A stretch of DNA of 52,473 nucleotides from a virus. Its lineage: Duplodnaviria; Heunggongvirae; Uroviricota; Caudoviricetes. The DNA is taken from positions 1-52,473 of IMG/VR virus record IMGVR_UViG_2541047750_000003. One strand, 5' to 3'. The notes below the pieces were generated by a model, which was not told where the DNA came from, ran no database searches, and saw nothing but the letters and a program-made list of their open reading frames with translations. The translations under genes and the position numbers were made by a program. This document shows, piece by piece, positions 16,840 through 24,284 of the stretch. Positions within the stretch are counted from its first letter, which is position 1. Each line of letters starts with the position of its first letter.

Positions 16840-17445
16840 ATGCAAAACCCTAAAAAACCCATAAGACGCCGTTGCAAGTGCTGCGGCGTTTTTTTTGAGC
16901 CTAAATATCATAATCAAACGTGGTGCAGCGATGAATGTCTGGAAGAACTGAAGTTTGACCAGCTATGCCGCGACCGTGAAAAGGCTATGAAGGCTATGGA
17001 ACGGAAGAAACGCCGCGATAGCCAGCGGGAAGAACGCAACCGGAAGCGGAAACAGTTAAATCCGCGCAGCTACTGGATCAAGCAAGTTCAAAACGTATTC
17101 AACGCCTATATCCGCGAACGTGACGCGCGCTTGCCGTGTATATCCTGCGGGACTTACTACGGTGAGCAATGCGGGTGGGATGCGGGCCATTACAGGACGG
17201 TTGCCGCCGCAGGACACCTTCGCTTTAACGAGGATAATTGCCATAAACAATGCAGGCACTGCAACCAGACATTAGACGGAAACATAGGAGGGTATCGCCC
17301 GGCGCTAATTCGAAAAATTGGCCTCGCCATGGTGGTAGCTCTGGAGAACAACAACGATACGCATAAATGGACGATTGCAGAATGTAAGGAGCTAATAAAC
17401 ATCTATCAGGCGAAATTGGACGCCTTAAGGAGAAAGGTAGCATGA
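16840..17445 (+). CDS. ninG: NinG/Rap-like recombination protein
   Basis: Start refined from track ORF 16750; RRCKCCGVFF...WCSDEC and CISCG...GHYRTVAAAGHLRFNEDNCHKQCRHCN match the NinG Cys/His pattern. Confidence 0.7.
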   Translation: MQNPKKPIRRRCKCCGVFFEPKYHNQTWCSDECLEELKFDQLCRDREKAMKAMERKKRRDSQREERNRKRKQLNPRSYWIKQVQNVFNAYIRERDARLPCISCGTYYGEQCGWDAGHYRTVAAAGHLRFNEDNCHKQCRHCNQTLDGNIGGYRPALIRKIGLAMVVALENNNDTHKWTIAECKELINIYQAKLDALRRKVA

Positions 17446-18338
17446 ATAATTGGCATGATATATTTGAATACGACAACGGTTTTTTATATTGGAAGGGAAA
17501 GAAAGGAAAGTGTAACGCTGGTGATTTGGCTGGTTGCATCCATAAAAATAGTGGTTATTGGGTTGTTCGTGTTAACGATAAATTACATAAAGTACATAGA
17601 ATTATATGGGAAATGCATAACGGACCAATTCCGAAAGGATGCGAGATAGATCATATTTGGCACAACAGAAATGATAACAGGATAGAAAATTTACGCCTTG
17701 TTACTCATAAGCAAAACGGAAGAAATCAGGCAAAACCAAAAAATAATAAAAGTGGGCAGCCTGGGGTTCATAAACTTTCTAACGGATACTATAGAGCGGA
17801 AATATGTGTTAATGGTAAAAATGTGTATCTTGGTCAGTTTGATAATTTTGAAGATGCAGTGGATGTCAGAAAAAAAGGAGAAAAAAAATATTGTTTCCAT
17901 GAAAACAATGGTGTAAGCAAGGAGATTTTGATGCGTGAATTTGAATTCACGTTACCCTGGGCACCATCGGTTAATTCTTATTACGGCAACAATAAAAGGG
18001 GTAGTAAGTATGTAACAAACAAAGGCAAGGATTTCCAAAAAAAAGTCAAAGAAATAATAGAATCACTAAAACTTGATCTTAATATTGATTTTAATGTTTC
18101 CGTTTATATATATGTAGCGCCACCTACACTACGCCCACACGATATTGATAATTGCTTAAAAGCAATATTCGATAGTCTTACTTACGCTCATTTTTGGGTT
18201 GATGATAGGCAGGTTTTTAGTCTTAAGGTTGTAAAGTGCCATAAAATAAAAAACGGCCAGATATTCGTAAAAGTGAAAGAACATTCAGGGGTGTTACCTG
18301 ATATTAACGAATATATTCAGAATTATTGGGAGGTGTGA
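17442..18338 (+). CDS. HNH endonuclease (with AP2-like segment) fused in frame to RusA-like Holliday junction resolvase
   Basis: N-terminal half: HNH motif EIDHIWHNRNDNRIENLRLVTHKQN plus GVHKLSNGYYRAEICVNGKNVYLGQFDNFEDA; C-terminal half: RusA-like LPWAPSVNSYYG...HDIDNCLKAIFDSL...WVDDRQV; markedly AT-rich N-terminal half. Confidence 0.6.
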   Translation: MNNWHDIFEYDNGFLYWKGKKGKCNAGDLAGCIHKNSGYWVVRVNDKLHKVHRIIWEMHNGPIPKGCEIDHIWHNRNDNRIENLRLVTHKQNGRNQAKPKNNKSGQPGVHKLSNGYYRAEICVNGKNVYLGQFDNFEDAVDVRKKGEKKYCFHENNGVSKEILMREFEFTLPWAPSVNSYYGNNKRGSKYVTNKGKDFQKKVKEIIESLKLDLNIDFNVSVYIYVAPPTLRPHDIDNCLKAIFDSLTYAHFWVDDRQVFSLKVVKCHKIKNGQIFVKVKEHSGVLPDINEYIQNYWEV

Positions 18339-18340
18339 CA

Positions 18341-18526
18341 ATGAAAAATGAAGTTAAAGATCTGCAAATAGATATTCAGCGCGATGAGCATGATTTAGCT
18401 ACAGTCCGACAAATCCAGGCTTTTCATATGCGCGAATTGCTTGCATTGAAAGAGCTTGAGAAAAAGTTAGTCCAGTCTATTTCTGATCGTAAACAACTTA
18501 TTGCTCGTTACGGGGGGGGGGAATAA
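18341..18526 (+). CDS. hypothetical protein (61 aa)
   Basis: Start refined to ATG after GGGAGGTG RBS. Confidence 0.4.
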   Translation: MKNEVKDLQIDIQRDEHDLATVRQIQAFHMRELLALKELEKKLVQSISDRKQLIARYGGGE

Positions 18527-19248
18527 TGAATTTAGAATCCATTCTGAAATTCCACTTTCCCAAATCACCGCGATTATCAGACGAAAGCCGGGGCACATCC
18601 CCGGATGCGCTTAATACGACTGATGCGCTAACCGCTGCGGGTATGGCGCAATCGCGCGTAGAGCTTGGCTATAGTGCTTTTTTAGGGAAGATGGAGCTAT
18701 CGCAAGCCGAAAAACACAGGGCTGTAGTATTGCTTACAGAGCGTTTAAGAGCTATGGCGAAAGATTACGAATATGTGATGGAATTAAATGAAGAACAACG
18801 CAATGATCTTATTATTCTTGTTGCCGTTTTCGCGTTTCGGGATTATTGCCAAAGCGCCGCGACGGAAAAAACTTGTATGGAGTGCGGCGGATATAAATTT
18901 ACGTTTGACGACTACGGAGAAAAACATCTTTGCAAAAAATGCAAGGGGCATGGAAAGGTTCGCAATCATTGTAAACAATGCAAGGGGCGTGGCGAGATAC
19001 CGGATAAAACAGCCAGCGAAGCGGCGGAAATGCCAGTATTCAAAACGTGCCAGCACTGCGGCGGGCGAGGCTACTCGCGTTTCCCTGTAGATCTTGTCCG
19101 GCAGGCGGTTAATCAGCTTGTTTTTCCGGTAAGCCGATCAACATGGTGGAAGAAATACAGGGTTTTCTATGAAGACGCCATTGCTGAATTGTTCAAAGAA
19201 GAGGCGAGGGCTGATAACGAAATTAAACGAGTTACACGGGGTGAATAA
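18526..19248 (+). CDS. zinc-finger protein with four CxxCxGxG repeats (240 aa)
   Basis: CMECGGYK, CKKCKGHG, CKQCKGRG, CQHCGGRG resemble a DnaJ-type Cys-rich domain. Confidence 0.5.
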   Translation: MNLESILKFHFPKSPRLSDESRGTSPDALNTTDALTAAGMAQSRVELGYSAFLGKMELSQAEKHRAVVLLTERLRAMAKDYEYVMELNEEQRNDLIILVAVFAFRDYCQSAATEKTCMECGGYKFTFDDYGEKHLCKKCKGHGKVRNHCKQCKGRGEIPDKTASEAAEMPVFKTCQHCGGRGYSRFPVDLVRQAVNQLVFPVSRSTWWKKYRVFYEDAIAELFKEEARADNEIKRVTRGE

Positions 19249-19448
19249 TGGATAAGATGGAAATAAACGATCAGTTTGCCGTTATTTTGTTCGAAGATAA
19301 AACAGGCGGCGCATGGTGTAAGAAAGTCACTGGTGCAGAAGCGCGTTTGGTGTTGGGTATGGCAAGCGCGTTAAATGATGGTGAATTGCCAGCCGTGCCA
19401 ATTGAGCCAGTTCATATTTACGGACGGAGTAACGACAATGAAGCCTAA
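19248..19448 (+). CDS. hypothetical protein (66 aa)
   Basis: ORF, ATGA coupling. Confidence 0.35.
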   Translation: MDKMEINDQFAVILFEDKTGGAWCKKVTGAEARLVLGMASALNDGELPAVPIEPVHIYGRSNDNEA

Positions 19449-19707
19449 ATTAAAGGAACATATATTTGCAAAGCTGGTTAATGACCTGACATTATCTGCG
19501 CGGTTGTGTCGTGATACGCAACAATTAAGGGCGTGGATAGCAAGGGATTTAAGAAAATATATTGAACCAGGCAGGCCAGGCGGAGAAATCACGATGGACG
19601 AAGCCATCAAGCGCCGTTCGGCTGAATGGTCAGTAAGTAATACAGGATTAACCGGATACATCGAAGGCTATAACGACTGTTTACAGGATCATGGCGATGG
19701 CAAGTAA
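19438..19707 (+). CDS. hypothetical protein (89 aa)
   Basis: Start refined to MKPKLKEH (track ORF 19375..19707). Confidence 0.4.
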   Translation: MKPKLKEHIFAKLVNDLTLSARLCRDTQQLRAWIARDLRKYIEPGRPGGEITMDEAIKRRSAEWSVSNTGLTGYIEGYNDCLQDHGDGK

Positions 19708-20005
19708 AGATCTACATTTAAACCTGAAAGGAGAATACTTTTACGCCATCCGGGCGGGAAAGAAGGTGGAAGAATACAGGCTTTACAATGACTATTGGCG
19801 TAAACGCCTGGAAGGGCGGGAATATGAACGCCTGATCATTAAGCTGGGGTATCCAGCCAGCCACGAAGCGCACCGGATTATAAACCTGCCTTATTTCGGG
19901 TACGAAGTAAAAACTATCACGCATCCATTATTCGGCCCTGATCCTGTTAAGGTATTCGCAATTAAGTGTGATGTGAATTGGATGTTAAGGTGGGGTGAGC
20001 AATGA
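19691..20005 (+). CDS. hypothetical protein (104 aa)
   Basis: ORF in operon. Confidence 0.4.
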   Translation: MAMASKDLHLNLKGEYFYAIRAGKKVEEYRLYNDYWRKRLEGREYERLIIKLGYPASHEAHRIINLPYFGYEVKTITHPLFGPDPVKVFAIKCDVNWMLRWGEQ

Positions 20006-20211
20006 AAAAAGCTGGCCTGTCAATTAGCCGTGTATTGTGCGGCGACGAAAACGAGATCCGCATAGAAATTAAATTTAGCATGGGTAAAGAGATAATTCTT
20101 TACACGACACCTGAAAACATGACGCTGGCGCTTACTGGTAAATCTGAAACGCCGTGCGACGTCCGGTTACGCAATATTGAAATTAAGGAATTAAGGAAGG
20201 GTGAAAAATGA
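20002..20211 (+). CDS. hypothetical protein (69 aa)
   Basis: ATGA coupling. Confidence 0.4.
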   Translation: MKKAGLSISRVLCGDENEIRIEIKFSMGKEIILYTTPENMTLALTGKSETPCDVRLRNIEIKELRKGEK

Positions 20212-20423
20212 AAAGTAACCGTAAACGCCTGGTAAGGGCGTATGATAAAGCATTAAAGGCTTTTGACGACCTGCGACACAATAAGCGCCAGCGCCGCAAA
20301 TGGGCGCGTATGCTTGTTTATGAGTGGCATTATTCTGATGCTTTTATGGAAAGTGCGCCGCTATTAACACAAGAACAAGCCGACGAAGTAGCTAACGATA
20401 ACGTTTATTATATGATGTGGTGA
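20208..20423 (+). CDS. hypothetical protein (71 aa)
   Basis: ATGA coupling. Confidence 0.4.
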   Translation: MKSNRKRLVRAYDKALKAFDDLRHNKRQRRKWARMLVYEWHYSDAFMESAPLLTQEQADEVANDNVYYMMW

Positions 20424-20427
20424 TAAT

Positions 20428-20793
20428 ATGCAAATAATCATTGATTACCTTTGCCACGCTGCAAATACGCTTTTCGGTTTTTATCAGCAACCATTCCTGA
20501 AAGAATGGGACGAAATGCTTAATGACATCCTCGACAAAGGATTAATAATGGAATTCGGGGAGCTAACAATCAAATTTAATTACGAAGGCAAAGAATATGA
20601 CATATGGGTAGGCAACAGATGGTATTCATACGGGCATATTTATTCAATTGGCGGTAAATACATTAAACGAAGTCAGGAATTTAGACCGCGCTTCCGCACA
20701 ATGCGACGACTGCATGACCTGCATATGAAGATATTTGGAGATCAGGAAGCACGGGAATTATTCAAAATTTACGGGGATAAATCATGGAGCTAA
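20428..20793 (+). CDS. hypothetical protein (121 aa)
   Basis: ORF in operon. Confidence 0.4.
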   Translation: MQIIIDYLCHAANTLFGFYQQPFLKEWDEMLNDILDKGLIMEFGELTIKFNYEGKEYDIWVGNRWYSYGHIYSIGGKYIKRSQEFRPRFRTMRRLHDLHMKIFGDQEARELFKIYGDKSWS

Positions 20794-21014
20794 AAATCTG
20801 GCAGACTATCGACGTAGTTGATAATGAATTAACAATGTTTGCCACTGACGGAAAACGCGTGGTGATCGCTACATGGACGCACAACCATGATGATATTGTT
20901 TTTCGTCGCAAAGCTGCGGAATGGCTTTTCTCTGATGAAGGCTACACGATGAACATTGCACAGCTTGCAAGAATGAAGGATGAAAAGCTGGTAGACAGCT
21001 ACACAACTGCATAA
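20784..21014 (+). CDS. hypothetical protein (76 aa)
   Basis: ORF in operon. Confidence 0.4.
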   Translation: MELKIWQTIDVVDNELTMFATDGKRVVIATWTHNHDDIVFRRKAAEWLFSDEGYTMNIAQLARMKDEKLVDSYTTA

Positions 21015-21024
21015 CGGGGTAAAT

Positions 21025-21258
21025 ATGCGTATTTATGAACACAAGCGGGATAAAACCCGCTTTTTTGTTCGTGCTGGCGTTGCATACCAGTATCACGAAT
21101 GCGGATACATTGAGGCGCTTGCTTACGATCTGGATTTCGAGCAGGAAAAAGAATGGTTCGATTTCAAAATATACCGCAAGCGTAAACCAACGCGCTACGA
21201 GCGCCACGCTATCCGGGACTTTTTAATCAGCATTGAGCGCTGGGGGACAGAAGAATGA
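21025..21258 (+). CDS. hypothetical protein (77 aa)
   Basis: ORF in operon. Confidence 0.4.
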   Translation: MRIYEHKRDKTRFFVRAGVAYQYHECGYIEALAYDLDFEQEKEWFDFKIYRKRKPTRYERHAIRDFLISIERWGTEE

Positions 21259-21533
21259 GAACAAAGAAAACAGCAGATCAGAAAGCGTTAGTTATCGCTA
21301 CAACGGATGTATCGTTATTCACGAAGGGTGAAGAGATAGATCTTAAATTGCTTTTTGGAATGTTTGAGCCACACGAAAAGCCGTGGTTCGTACATGAAGA
21401 TAAACAAGGCAATATGCGCGTAGTAGTGCCTGACAGTAAAAGCGATATATTTTTTGGTATTCCAGATCCGTTACATGACGGTGAGATGTTGGCGGTGTTG
21501 TTGATCTCTGATGCTGTTACTTATAAGGGGTAA
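21255..21533 (+). CDS. hypothetical protein (92 aa)
   Basis: ATGA coupling. Confidence 0.4.
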   Translation: MRTKKTADQKALVIATTDVSLFTKGEEIDLKLLFGMFEPHEKPWFVHEDKQGNMRVVVPDSKSDIFFGIPDPLHDGEMLAVLLISDAVTYKG

Positions 21534-21535
21534 AG

Positions 21536-21763
21536 ATGAAAGTCAAATTCTTGCACGATCACGGTTATCCGTCATTGAAACAGGTTGTTGGTAAGGTCGT
21601 TAATGTCGTTCATAGCGATGATGTCACTTGCATGATTAACGGTGCTGATTTAATCGCCGCTGGCGCTGATGATCATTACATCAATCCGGCGTGGTCGTAT
21701 ACGTTCAGCCTGGGTGACTTCGTTGGCGACAAGGGGCGCGGGCTGCAAGTGGTCGAGGGTTAA
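21536..21763 (+). CDS. hypothetical protein (75 aa)
   Basis: ORF in operon. Confidence 0.4.
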   Translation: MKVKFLHDHGYPSLKQVVGKVVNVVHSDDVTCMINGADLIAAGADDHYINPAWSYTFSLGDFVGDKGRGLQVVEG

Positions 21764-21767
21764 TATC

Positions 21768-22016
21768 ATGGACGTTTACGAAGATCTATACCTTCAGACG
21801 AATACCCACACTTTTTATTTTTTGAAAAACGGCGTTGTATATCGCAGCGACGACGGGATGGTAATGAAGGAGTGGTTATTTAAGCGTAAAGACCTACTCG
21901 ACGATCTGGTTTTTGCCGGGATATTTCGTAAACGTCCGGCTAACCTGGAAGAAGAAATGTTGATTGAGGTAATTAAAAATGAAAATCAGGGTAAGTTATT
22001 TCCGGGCGAAAGATAA
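21768..22016 (+). CDS. hypothetical protein (82 aa)
   Basis: Start refined to MDVYEDLY (track ORF 21669..22016). Confidence 0.4.
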   Translation: MDVYEDLYLQTNTHTFYFLKNGVVYRSDDGMVMKEWLFKRKDLLDDLVFAGIFRKRPANLEEEMLIEVIKNENQGKLFPGER

Positions 22017-22230
22017 GGCAACAGGAAAGCAGATGGCGATCCTGGTTAACGAGGCCAATTATATGTTTGTACTTCAGCCGTGGTGCATAGCTGACTATAA
22101 CGATGATTATCGTCGTCACGGTGCGCGGAGTGCGGTAGGCATGAAAGGCTGGCAACCGCGCGACATGGAAAACTATTGTGAATGGAAATTAGTAGCAAAA
22201 TACACTGTCGATTATAAAGGTGTTTTCTGA
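21979..22230 (+). CDS. hypothetical protein (83 aa)
   Basis: ORF in operon. Confidence 0.4.
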   Translation: MKIRVSYFRAKDKATGKQMAILVNEANYMFVLQPWCIADYNDDYRRHGARSAVGMKGWQPRDMENYCEWKLVAKYTVDYKGVF

Positions 22231-22302
22231 TTAATGTTACTTTCACGGAAGATATGCGAACCAGTGGGGCAAATGACCCCATCAAGCCAGAAGGGTTTAA
22301 TC

Positions 22303-22602
22303 ATGAAAAGCGATAAATTCATTGCGTGCTGTTTTGTTGAAGTGCCTAAAGGTGATGCCTTCTGCGATTATGAATTTAAAGACAGTTGGGGAAAATCTCA
22401 TGTTGTAGTTGGCAAGCGCGGAGACTGGTTATACATAACAGACGACGACATGATTTTTACTGCAAACCAGTTATTCAAAATTAAGTCAGAAAATAGTGAA
22501 ACGCCACTTTGCAGCATGTTTAACATGCATTATCACTCACTATTATTGTTAAAACAAGATGTTATAAATAAAGCGCGTAGCTTACCTGGTGCTGAATTTT
22601 AA
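22303..22602 (+). CDS. hypothetical protein (99 aa)
   Basis: Start refined to MKSDKFIACC (track ORF 22234..22602). Confidence 0.4.
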   Translation: MKSDKFIACCFVEVPKGDAFCDYEFKDSWGKSHVVVGKRGDWLYITDDDMIFTANQLFKIKSENSETPLCSMFNMHYHSLLLLKQDVINKARSLPGAEF

Positions 22603-22625
22603 TTTATTACTAAGGAGAATAAGCA

Positions 22626-22949
22626 ATGTACAAATTTATCAGCGTTAAAGTTTTTCGTGGCACTTTACCGAGCAAGGAAACATTAGGGCAATTCGCCGGA
22701 CAACCTGGCGCATGTTTCCGTGTAGCCACTGAAGACGACGCGCACGTTAAATGCTTCCATGTAACTGAACCGCCTTTTAATGCAGACCATCTTGAAGACC
22801 TGAATAGAATTAAAAGCCTTATTTTTGCTTATCTGGCGTTCCCTGGAATGGGTGATACTGATGTTGAATTGCTTGGTGCTGAACTGTTTGCGGAATACAA
22901 AATGACTGAAGGTGTAACAGGGGGAATTGACATTGAGCGCATTAAGTAA
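22626..22949 (+). CDS. hypothetical protein (107 aa)
   Basis: AAGGAG RBS. Confidence 0.45.
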   Translation: MYKFISVKVFRGTLPSKETLGQFAGQPGACFRVATEDDAHVKCFHVTEPPFNADHLEDLNRIKSLIFAYLAFPGMGDTDVELLGAELFAEYKMTEGVTGGIDIERIK

Positions 22950-23187
22950 GCTATACAAGATCAGGTGTAAAGGCGAATACCCTGGCTTTACTACTGGATG
23001 CGAATACCTGGGCCATATTGGGTATGGATCTTTCGGTGAATTAGGGATGAATACGCTTGACGACGACGGCGACAGCAGGACGCTTGATCTTGATTCTGAT
23101 GATTTCGAATACATCCCGCCAGTGACTTCCCGCGTAGTTGATGAGTTCCTGGCTGAACATGAAGATGATGAGGATGATTATGATTGA
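22927..23187 (+). CDS. acidic hypothetical protein (86 aa)
   Basis: Track ORF begins at a TTG; start uncertain; Asp/Glu-rich C-terminus. Confidence 0.3.
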   Translation: MTLSALSKLYKIRCKGEYPGFTTGCEYLGHIGYGSFGELGMNTLDDDGDSRTLDLDSDDFEYIPPVTSRVVDEFLAEHEDDEDDYD

Positions 23188-23374
23188 ATGCCTTATTGCT
23201 GTGATTGTTTTGCTTTATATCGCTGGCGCGATCCTGATGTCATGTTTTATTAAGTATAGCGGCGCTGAACCTGGTGGCCTTGAGATTCCTTTATGGCCTG
23301 TAGTGATGTTTCTCGCTTTCTTTGATGCTACGGTAGTGCAGATCAAGCGAGCTATTAAGGAGCGCAAGAAATGA
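23180..23374 (+). CDS. small membrane protein (64 aa)
   Basis: Start refined to MIECLIAVIVLLYIAGAILM; two hydrophobic helices. Confidence 0.4.
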   Translation: MIECLIAVIVLLYIAGAILMSCFIKYSGAEPGGLEIPLWPVVMFLAFFDATVVQIKRAIKERKK

Positions 23375-23553
23375 TTGAAGACGGTATCTATGGTGTAAAC
23401 CTGATGGAGAACGTTTTTTACATGGTGGACGGCGATACTGTAACAATCAGCTTCGATGGTGGGGAATATGCAGAGCCATTCTTCAAAACAACAAGGGAAG
23501 ACATTAAGCACGGCGTTGATAACGGCGTACTGTTTAAGGTTGGCGAGTTATGA
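23371..23553 (+). CDS. hypothetical protein (60 aa)
   Basis: ATGA coupling; N-terminus MIEDGIYG paralogous to the next ORF. Confidence 0.4.
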   Translation: MIEDGIYGVNLMENVFYMVDGDTVTISFDGGEYAEPFFKTTREDIKHGVDNGVLFKVGEL

Positions 23554-23726
23554 ACGAGATCGAAGACGGTATCTATTTGCACATGTTATTTAATATCGCC
23601 TATTTGGTTAAAGGTGATAAGGTGATGACACAAAGCGCTGGCAATAAATATTGGGAATCAAGCGGAATGGATCGGTGGCATATGCAGATGTTGCTTGATA
23701 ATGGCCTGATATACAGGAAGCAGTAA
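23550..23726 (+). CDS. hypothetical protein (58 aa)
   Basis: MNEIEDGIYLHMLF...; stop TAA begins the first copy of an 18-nt direct repeat. Confidence 0.35.
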   Translation: MNEIEDGIYLHMLFNIAYLVKGDKVMTQSAGNKYWESSGMDRWHMQMLLDNGLIYRKQ

Positions 23727-23991
23727 AGCCGTATTTGTGGGGGGCAGTATGGAAGAAATGATTTTGCTGTCATTAATATGGCATCGGTTCGGGAGTGAAA
23801 AAGGTTACTCGCCTGCTTGCTGGCTGGATAGTAAAAGTGGGAAGGGGTATCAAAACGAATGCGAATTTAGAAGGGAGTGGCGAGGCGGTAAGGAAGTGCA
23901 AGGATATTTTGCACCGAAACACGTCGCCGCCAAATACAAAGAATGGCTTGTTCGTTTGCTTGGCCCTTATCGTTAAAGCCGTATTTGTGGG
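23724..23991. repeat. 18-nt direct repeat TAAAGCCGTATTTGTGGG (two copies, 23724-23741 and 23974-23991)
   Basis: Exact identity read from sequence; each copy starts with the stop codon of a small ORF. Confidence 0.8.
23749..23976 (+). CDS. hypothetical protein (75 aa)
   Basis: Start refined to MEEMILLS; flanked by the two copies of the 18-nt repeat. Confidence 0.4.
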   Translation: MEEMILLSLIWHRFGSEKGYSPACWLDSKSGKGYQNECEFRREWRGGKEVQGYFAPKHVAAKYKEWLVRLLGPYR

Positions 23992-24013
23992 TCGAAAACA
24001 AACAGATTAAAAT
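23985..24013 (+). promoter_or_regulatory. candidate late promoter (pR-prime-like)
   Basis: TTGTGG, 17-nt spacer, TAAAAT, about 30 nt upstream of a terminator hairpin and 70 nt upstream of the holin ATG. Confidence 0.3.
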
Positions 24014-24040
24014 ATTACCTAACAATGCGAAACTGTAACT

Positions 24041-24070
24041 ACCCGGCCCCGTGCCGGGTTTTTGCTTTGT
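24041..24070 (+). terminator. intrinsic terminator-like hairpin just upstream of the lysis cassette (tR-prime-like)
   Basis: acccggc-cccgt-gccgggt followed by TTTTTGCTTTGTT, directly before the holin RBS GGAGG. Confidence 0.5.
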
Positions 24071-24083
24071 TGGAGGTAAATCT

Positions 24084-24284
24084 ATGTTCGACAGAATACG
24101 GGAGGCATGTGCGTATGTGACTGGGGCCGTAACTGCTTTTTTCGGCGCGATAACCATCAATGATATTGCCGTCTTTGTGGGTATCTTATCAACCGTAGGC
24201 ACATTTGCCGTTAATTATTACTTCAAATCACAGGAGAACAAGCGAGCGCAAGAGGAACACGACGCGCGAATGGGGAATAAGTAA
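24084..24284 (+). CDS. class II holin / pinholin (phage 21 S-like)
   Basis: 66 aa from the ATG after the GGAGG RBS; two TM helices, charged C-terminal tail; immediately precedes the SAR endolysin. Confidence 0.65.

Follow-up and report, generated by a model that had tools for sequence, protein, structure and literature searches.

A probable lambda-family late antiterminator Q with a predicted second zinc ribbon in an mEp021-like coliphage

Introduction

The closest described system for the gene considered here is the late-gene antiterminator Q of phage lambda, after which the Qlambda family (PF03589) is named, next to the Q21 (PF06530) and Q82 (PF06323) families (Yin et al. 2022, PMC9388147). 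Lambda Q is composed of a disordered N-terminus, a helical body, and a zinc-ribbon arm. Together with NusA, its residues 1-44 refold into a torus or nozzle that narrows the RNA-exit channel; the body, made of four helices with a helix-turn-helix (HTH; residues 61-113 and 153-207), reads positions 1-4 of the 13-bp binding element, and the arm (residues 114-152) reads positions 11-13 and touches both the beta' zinc-binding domain and the repositioned sigma region 4 (PMC9388147). A second point of reference is provided by the mEpimmI phages; the mEp phages were isolated as Nus-dependent, and the group is described as requiring both an N-like (Gp17) and a 'Qlambda-like' protein (PMC11893012). Here, we analyzed an open reading frame (ORF) of 240 aa with an ATG start at positions 18526-19248 (plus strand) of the virus record IMGVR_UViG_2541047750_000003, all 52,473 nucleotides of which are referred to as the window, and concluded that it very probably encodes the late-gene transcription antiterminator Q of the phage, a member of the lambda family.

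The window is an mEp021-like (mEpimmI) coliphage, the region concerned being 88-90% identical to the temperate coliphages mEp554, mEp044, mEp013, mEp010, mEp021, mEp515, and MagusPhagus of this group. As such, a lambda-family Q is an ordinary and already known finding, as the protein is named accordingly in close relatives: in mEp021 the orthologue is gene 37, which carries the label 'putative late gene regulator Q', and that of MagusPhagus is labelled 'anti-termination protein Q-like'. Likewise, a cluster of 981 sequences at the National Center for Biotechnology Information (NCBI), 97% identical to Q, bears the name 'antitermination protein', and a Q gene so named is carried by 35 of 5426 complete E. 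coli genomes. Within the phage collection, mEp013 has the Q nearest in sequence (95.8% identical). In the published genomes of mEp013, mEp554, mEp044, and mEp010, the orthologue is labelled only 'hypothetical protein'. A literature search for CxxCxGxG repeats in Q, or for the Q of mEp phages, returned only the passing 'Qlambda-like' mention.

Results

Comparison of the encoded protein with Pfam revealed a match to PF03589 ('Antitermination protein Q') of 102.3 bits (E=1.6e-29; gathering cut-off 26.7), and no match to either the Q21 or the Q82 family at E<=1. The protein was also matched over its full length by PHROG 127, 'anti-termination protein Q-like' (E=2.7e-78), and when the sequences of the Protein Data Bank (PDB) were searched with phmmer, the best hit, at E=6.9e-38, was lambda Q (7ubm_Q), with residues 1-114 and 148-238 in the alignment. 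The two proteins share about 34% identity and are collinear over the whole length. An earlier sequence-only reading of this DNA had put forward the zinc-knuckle protein as a candidate late regulator and had proposed a profile comparison with the three Q families; the outcome of this in silico check, a match to PF03589 above its cut-off, supports that suggestion. The same reading held that no recognisable lambda-type Q gene lay next to the lysis cassette. This premise fails, because the zinc-knuckle ORF itself encodes a lambda-type Q, which aligns collinearly with that of lambda from its first residue to the C-terminus; small ORFs part it from the lysis cassette.

The predicted fold pointed in the same direction. 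An AlphaFold2 model of the full-length protein, built on 23 sequences, had a predicted local distance difference test (pLDDT) score of 79.6. When the model was compared with the PDB using Foldseek, the top eight matches were all Qlambda chains, with E-values from 2e-14 (7ubn_Q) to 4e-7 and target-normalised template modelling scores of 0.65-0.74, and the next, unrelated matches had E>1.

The N-terminus, body, and arm of lambda Q are all retained in the window protein. Residues 1-44 (18526-18657; this and all features described below lie on the plus strand) are homologous to the disordered N-terminus that forms the nozzle segment of lambda Q: 25 of the 44 residues are identical, the alignment is free of gaps, and pLDDT is below 50 at residues 1-29, as expected of a disordered segment. 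Residues 45-113 (18658-18864) form the initial half of the helical body. They match lambda Q 45-113 collinearly (25 of 69 identical) and were modelled as helices 46-55, 60-78, and 89-109 with pLDDT 77-96. The second half of the body, residues 184-240 (19075-19245), comprises the HTH and the C-terminal helix, aligns with lambda Q 153-207, and was modelled as helices 188-198 and 204-237 (pLDDT 84-94). Between the two halves stands the lambda-type zinc-ribbon arm with its tip helix, residues 149-183 (18970-19074), whose C149, C152, C175, and C178 correspond to lambda C118, C121, C144, and C147 in a gap-free alignment with lambda Q 118-152. The knuckle-to-knuckle spacing in the arm, 22 residues, is identical to that in lambda Q, and the model shows a strand at 157-159, a helix at 161-167, and a strand at 172-174. 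What lambda Q lacks is residues 114-148 (18865-18969), an extra two-knuckle zinc ribbon by prediction (C117, C120, C136, and C139), so that the window protein differs by 31 aa inserted where body and arm meet; the insertion bears knuckles 1 and 2 and with them a putative second zinc site. Outside the knuckles, G39 and T237 (lambda T206) are invariant in the family alignment.

The four knuckles that the sequence-only reading had quoted as CxxCxGxG motifs are present as given, namely CMECGGYK (C117/C120), CKKCKGHG (C136/C139), CKQCKGRG (C149/C152), and CQHCGGRG (C175/C178), but the first of them is CxxCxGxK and departs from the strict motif. In the alignment of 23 database homologues, with identity down to 35%, all eight knuckle cysteines as well as G141, G154, G180, and G182 are invariant, and the knuckle pattern is therefore a conserved feature and not a product of chance. 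We infer that the knuckles form two consecutive zinc ribbons, 1+2 and 3+4. This predicted pairing is favored because of the strand patterns in the AlphaFold2 models, the homology of knuckles 3+4 to the lambda arm, and the variable loop between knuckles 1 and 2. Strands at 113-116, 125-127, 133-135, and 144-147, a self-contained zinc-ribbon pattern, appeared in the models of both the full-length protein and a fragment spanning residues 111-148; for the isolated 38-aa fragment, the best model had four beta strands and pLDDT 82.8, and one of the five models was confident. The likenesses that Foldseek returned for the fragment model, to DnaJ-type (DnaJA2, DnaJA3, BSD2), anti-TRAP, and Qlambda-arm zinc units, had non-significant E-values, and NCBIfam gave a weak anti-TRAP match on residues 114-145. 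Across the family, the loop between knuckles 1 and 2 ranges from about 11 to 58 residues, that of the window protein being among the shortest, and the spacings between knuckles 2 and 3 and between 3 and 4 are constant (13 and 26 residues).

An exhaustive search of 1.8 billion cluster representatives yielded 176 proteins matching Q at E<=0.001. Among the 51 listed matches of 195-300 aa, three or four CxxC pairs were found in 32 and two, as in lambda, in 8; several of the homologues counted with three pairs carry a CxC variant at knuckle 3. The four-knuckle layout is thus not unusual, being found in most family representatives surveyed and in phi80 Q, and the precomputed Pfam architecture of Q homologues already lists PF27659, PF03589, and PF00684 together. 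Within the mEpimmI group, the extra module is the part that varies. In seven mEpimmI phages (the window, mEp013, mEp554, mEp044, mEp021, MagusPhagus, and mEp010), residues 1-63 (100% identity) and the HTH region show no differences, and residues 116-147 fall into two clearly different alleles: type A in the first five and type B, which is 2 residues longer and has an extra cysteine, in MagusPhagus and mEp010. No correlation was seen between the allele and the -35 or upstream sequence of the late promoter considered below, a weak comparison with two type B genomes; mEp010 has the upstream sequence of the type A phages, and MagusPhagus alone differs.

The position of the gene agrees with its assignment in order and orientation. 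The succession NinG-RusA-orf61-Q ... holin is kept in the seven phages and in L009, a metagenomic relative whose Q is 49% identical. Q does not stand next to pR' and the lysis genes; in agreement with the distance of about 4.8 kb given by the sequence-only reading, 4835 nt filled with small ORFs separate the Q stop from the holin ATG at 24084. Such adjacency is a typical, not a strictly defining, feature of the Qlambda family, and in the relatives, too, Q lies apart from the lysis genes (2.0-6.1 kb).

No gaps occur between the ORFs from the Q start to 23976, and the one non-coding stretch of any size comprises the 107 bp in front of the holin gene (24084-24284; PHROG 20 holin, E=3.7e-20), whose orthologues are annotated 'holin' or 'class II holin' and which is predicted to be the first gene of the late operon that Q switches on. 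In mEp044 the holin is uncalled, and its place in the annotation is taken by an ORF of 108 nt and an over-long lysozyme ORF. The stretch contains a candidate late promoter pR' (23985-24013) composed of a weak -35, TTGTGG (23985-23990), a 17-bp spacer, GTCGAAAACAAACAGAT, and a -10, TAAAAT (24008-24013). The conserved spacer sequence is AAAACAAACAGAT, and the spacer is where, by prediction, the Q-binding element would be expected. Seven nucleotides (ATTACCT) past the -10 lies AACAAT (24021-24026), a -10-like hexamer that we regard as a candidate sigma-dependent pause element; it is invariant in the seven phages, and TAAAAT-N7-AACAAT has its sole exact match in the window here. There follows an intrinsic, tR'-like terminator (24041-24064), the t5 of mEp021, with the stem ACCCGGC/GCCGGGT, a 5-nt loop, and a T-run. 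The terminator that the sequence-only reading had seen ahead of the holin is accordingly present in the sequence, its 7-bp GC-rich stem (24041-24059; fold of -21.8 kcal/mol, z = -2.7) being followed by TTTTTGCTTTG. Its equivalent is annotated in mEp021, mEp013, mEp010, and mEp044, and t5, the terminator ahead of the mEp021 holin, is listed among the experimentally demonstrated terminators (PMC11893012). The sequence from 23997 to the holin ATG is nearly invariant in the seven mEpimmI phages, and the preceding coding DNA varies. An Rfam scan of the whole window gave no family at gathering score, hence no known RNA element at the leader.

The same succession of elements can be read in related promoters. 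Lambda pR' has TTGACT-N17-TAAATT, TGACTC, and AACGAT, the last 6 nt after the -10. The annotated pR' of phi80, for which a Q-binding site is also given, has TTGCAT-N17-TAGATT, CATCTCT, and, 7 nt past the -10, AACGCT; its terminator follows at about 50 nt. L009 has TATAAT, TCCCTC, and AATAAT (6 nt after the -10), then a hairpin and a T-run. Judging from sequence, we consider the assignment of promoter, pause element, and terminator before the holin likely to be correct.

Several points weigh against the combined picture of a lambda-family Q acting at this site. The -35 of the candidate pR' is weak and differs in MagusPhagus, the promoter was not flagged in a scan at a threshold of 9 of 12, and a Q-binding element is not definable from the sequence. 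The terminator begins only about 20 nt past the predicted transcription start, against a leader of 194 nt in lambda, and the predicted terminated leader RNA, at about 45 nt, would be very short. The knuckle pairing was read from DSSP strings of AlphaFold2 models, with one confident fragment model in five, and experiments on the Q protein or its orthologues were not found in the literature searched. Finally, all genes from Q through the holin are co-oriented, without gaps to 23976, so that read-through from the early promoter by the N-like Gp17 could aid late expression.

Taken further, this last point becomes the alternative that survives best, although we regard it as improbable: the Q homologue would be genuine yet dispensable, and the late genes would be reached mainly by early transcripts made termination-resistant through Gp17 and nut. 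It presents itself because Q, the small ORFs, and the lysis genes form one uninterrupted co-oriented block, and it gains from the weak -35 and from mEp021, which has an N-like system with three nut sites, nutR2 being described downstream of the gp32 gene (PMC11893012). That gene lies upstream of NinG and Q in mEp021. However, Q is under strong purifying selection, as residues 1-63 and the HTH region do not differ among seven phages in which the genes nearby do, and the conserved cassette of -10, pause-like element, and terminator stands exactly before the holin in these phages and in a distant relative, where it would serve no purpose if no factor acted on it. The lambda genes, moreover, are co-oriented in the same way, and Q is nevertheless essential there.

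It is also very unlikely that Q acts at a promoter right after its own gene (TAAGAT-N7-AACGAT, 19253-19271), which would place the small ORFs in the late operon. A -10/pause pattern with 2 mismatches does begin 5 nt past the Q stop and contains the exact AACGAT of lambda, but such patterns occur 16 times in the window against 12.7 expected by chance, and this one falls within the following ORF, whose start codon takes in the last base of the Q stop (TAATG). In four relatives the site reads TAAGCT, in mEp021 and mEp044, which have different genes there, it is absent, and no terminator-like hairpin was flagged on the plus strand in the 1.6 kb after it. The candidate was therefore dropped.

The zinc centres of DnaJ are nested, motif 1 pairing with 4 and motif 2 with 3. 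The least probable reading, that of a DnaJ-like cysteine-rich zinc-finger protein serving as a chaperone or protein-binding module unrelated to transcription, draws on the resemblance of the four CxxCxGxG-type motifs to the DnaJ central domain, on a PF00684 match (E=9.6e-6) with weak DnaJ matches in NCBIfam, and on the non-significant likeness of the isolated extra module to DnaJA2, DnaJA3, BSD2, and anti-TRAP zinc units, but it was rejected, since (i) PF00684 reached 26.2 bits, below its cut-off of 32.7, and over residues 136-183 only, so that the profiles did not give the DnaJ-like domain alone that the sequence-only reading had named as fatal to its own suggestion, (ii) no J domain or G/F region was matched in Pfam or NCBIfam, and DnaJ equivalogs scored 10-23 bits against cut-offs of 338-548, (iii) lambda Q can be aligned collinearly with the other ~190 residues, and the model as a whole matches Qlambda only, (iv) the knuckle spacing, variable between 1 and 2 and constant thereafter, fits consecutive ribbons and not the nested DnaJ arrangement, and (v) lambda Q itself has two such motifs, which form its DNA- and RNA polymerase-binding arm (PMC9388147).

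Directly ahead of Q lies orf61 (18341-18526), an ORF of 61 aa whose stop overlaps the Q start (TAATG) and which belongs to PHROG 18514, of unknown function; it comes before Q in all relatives, with an equivalent at the same place in mEp013, mEp554, mEp044, mEp010, MagusPhagus, and L009. A run of ten G (18512-18521) directly before the Q start makes up the last codons of orf61 (GGGE) and the likely ribosome-binding site of Q. The relatives have GGGGG(C/T)AAATA there, 3 nt shorter than in the window, and the run could be a slippage-prone tract or an assembly artefact. Further upstream, a single ORF of 298 aa (17442-18338) carries both an HNH_3 endonuclease domain (residues 50-94, 73.9 bits) and a RusA Holliday-junction resolvase domain (residues 173-278), at a position where the relatives have a stand-alone RusA of ~135 aa. 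The arrangement resembles an in-frame insertion of an HNH (homing-type) endonuclease gene ahead of rusA, and RusA may still start at an internal Met of this ORF ('MREFEF').

Downstream, an array of ~20 tightly packed, co-oriented small ORFs (19248-23976) extends between Q and the lysis cassette. The array is not part of the Q machinery, yet it is the reason why Q does not adjoin the holin. Its length is 2.0 kb in mEp021, 4.8 kb in the window, and 6.1 kb in MagusPhagus, and it is hypervariable in content and length (the window, L001-L006, and L009). Nearly all of its ORFs lack an assigned function. Scans of nine small ORFs, eight of the array and one immediately before Q, gave no Pfam match and only PHROGs of unknown function. 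A common N-terminus, 'EDGIY', in the consecutive ORFs at 23371 and 23551 points to paralogy. The array may be an island of accessory or anti-defence genes upstream of the late promoter. In its middle, within the predicted ORF 21025-21258, lies a strong terminator-like hairpin (21043-21062; AAGCGGG-ATAAAA-CCCGCTT, then TTTTTG), and terminator T9 is annotated at the corresponding place in mEp554. At the far end of the array, an 18-bp exact direct repeat, TAAAGCCGTATTTGTGGG, occurs at 23724-23741 and 23974-23991, 250 bp apart. The two copies flank an extra 75-aa ORF (23749-23976; PHROG 23715, unknown function), and within the repeat lie both the candidate -35 and the preceding ORF's stop codon. 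In the aligned sequence upstream of the holin, a single copy or near-copy stands directly before the promoter spacer in mEp013, mEp010, mEp021, mEp044, and mEp554, and MagusPhagus is without it. The 75-aa ORF looks like a gene cassette inserted by recombination at the repeat.

Discussion

Family membership, predicted fold, conserved ligands, synteny, and the conservation of the cis-elements together carry the assignment of ORF 18526-19248 to the lambda-family late antiterminator. By homology with lambda Q, from which the nozzle mechanism and the NusA dependence are carried over, the protein may act as follows. Q would be made from the early rightward operon, in which NinG, HNH-RusA, orf61, and Q follow one another with overlapping stop and start codons. 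It would bind its predicted site at the late promoter in the 107-bp gap before the holin and capture RNA polymerase held at the putative sigma70-dependent promoter-proximal pause AACAAT (24021-24026). With NusA, residues 1-44 would then refold into a nozzle on the RNA-exit channel, and RNA polymerase so modified would ignore the 24041-24059 hairpin and later terminators, allowing transcription of the lysis, packaging, and virion genes. In this scheme, the promoter, the pause site, and the Q-binding site, like the knuckle pairing and the role of the extra ribbon, are predictions.

If so, the phage has a standard lambda-family Q switch, and no new late regulator is needed. For annotation, the mEpimmI entries called 'hypothetical protein' can be named, and a late promoter/pause/terminator cassette can be proposed for the whole group. 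What little novelty is left concerns the second zinc ribbon, which is unstudied, and the variable array of accessory genes that parts Q from its site.

Within the Q finding, all but the variation of the extra zinc module is already explained. By analogy, the module would occupy the place at which lambda Q contacts the beta' zinc-binding domain; all structural studies of the family have used the single-ribbon lambda Q, and a second ribbon is common at this polymerase-contacting hinge. The position could be either a tolerated insertion site or that of an exchangeable adaptor. That the inserted ribbon is an exchangeable adaptor at the body-arm hinge, and not a passive insertion, is suggested on a limited basis, because the loop between knuckles 1 and 2 varies so widely in length and two divergent alleles occur in otherwise near-identical mEpimmI proteins; we regard this idea as doubtful. 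Were it true, the module could reset the reach or geometry of the arm, and hence the spacing or sequence of the Q-binding element, or its contacts with RNA polymerase, sigma region 4, or NusA. A related possibility, held with the same reserve, is that the short leader and the remote Q could represent a distinct 'split' late-switch layout, in which a hypervariable accessory-gene array is tolerated between regulator and target.

Among known systems, the mEpimmI phages are the nearest. Their Q proteins (mEp021 gene 37 and those of mEp013, mEp554, mEp044, mEp010, and MagusPhagus) are orthologues 85-96% identical to the window protein, and both the synteny of Q and the element upstream of the holin are shared. 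Only the extra zinc module is markedly different, in the type B phages; outside the protein, the window differs by the longer G-run before the Q start codon and by the extra ORF before the promoter. The DnaJ cysteine-rich domain (PF00684) and B. subtilis anti-TRAP have the CxxCxGxG knuckle in common with the window protein, whose extra module resembles a single anti-TRAP-like two-knuckle zinc unit, though through weak, non-significant matches. Unlike DnaJ, the protein stays below the Pfam cut-off, is without a J domain, stands in the context of a DNA- and polymerase-binding antiterminator, and is predicted to pair its knuckles consecutively.

The four-knuckle arrangement itself recurs in phi80 Q (gp17, 269 aa; JX871397), an annotated late antiterminator of the same family, with knuckles in the order C-x2-C, a long loop, CxxCxGxG, CxCxGxG, and CxxCxGxG. 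Its loop between knuckles 1 and 2 is ~50 residues longer than in the window protein, its gene adjoins its own promoter, unlike the window gene, and the Q-binding site at pR' is annotated directly past the -35. Lambda Q (PDB 4MO1, 7UBJ-7UBN), finally, shares with the window protein the nozzle N-terminus, the helical HTH body, and the zinc-ribbon arm. Its gene likewise comes after NinG/Rus-type genes and before the lysis cassette, and its target shows the same order of -10, -10-like pause element, and terminator as the candidate site. The recognition-helix residues differ, and the DNA specificity of the two proteins should therefore differ as well. The presumed target lies 4.8 kb from Q in the window and about 80 bp from it in lambda, and the leader up to the terminator, 194 nt in lambda, is predicted to be about 45 nt here.

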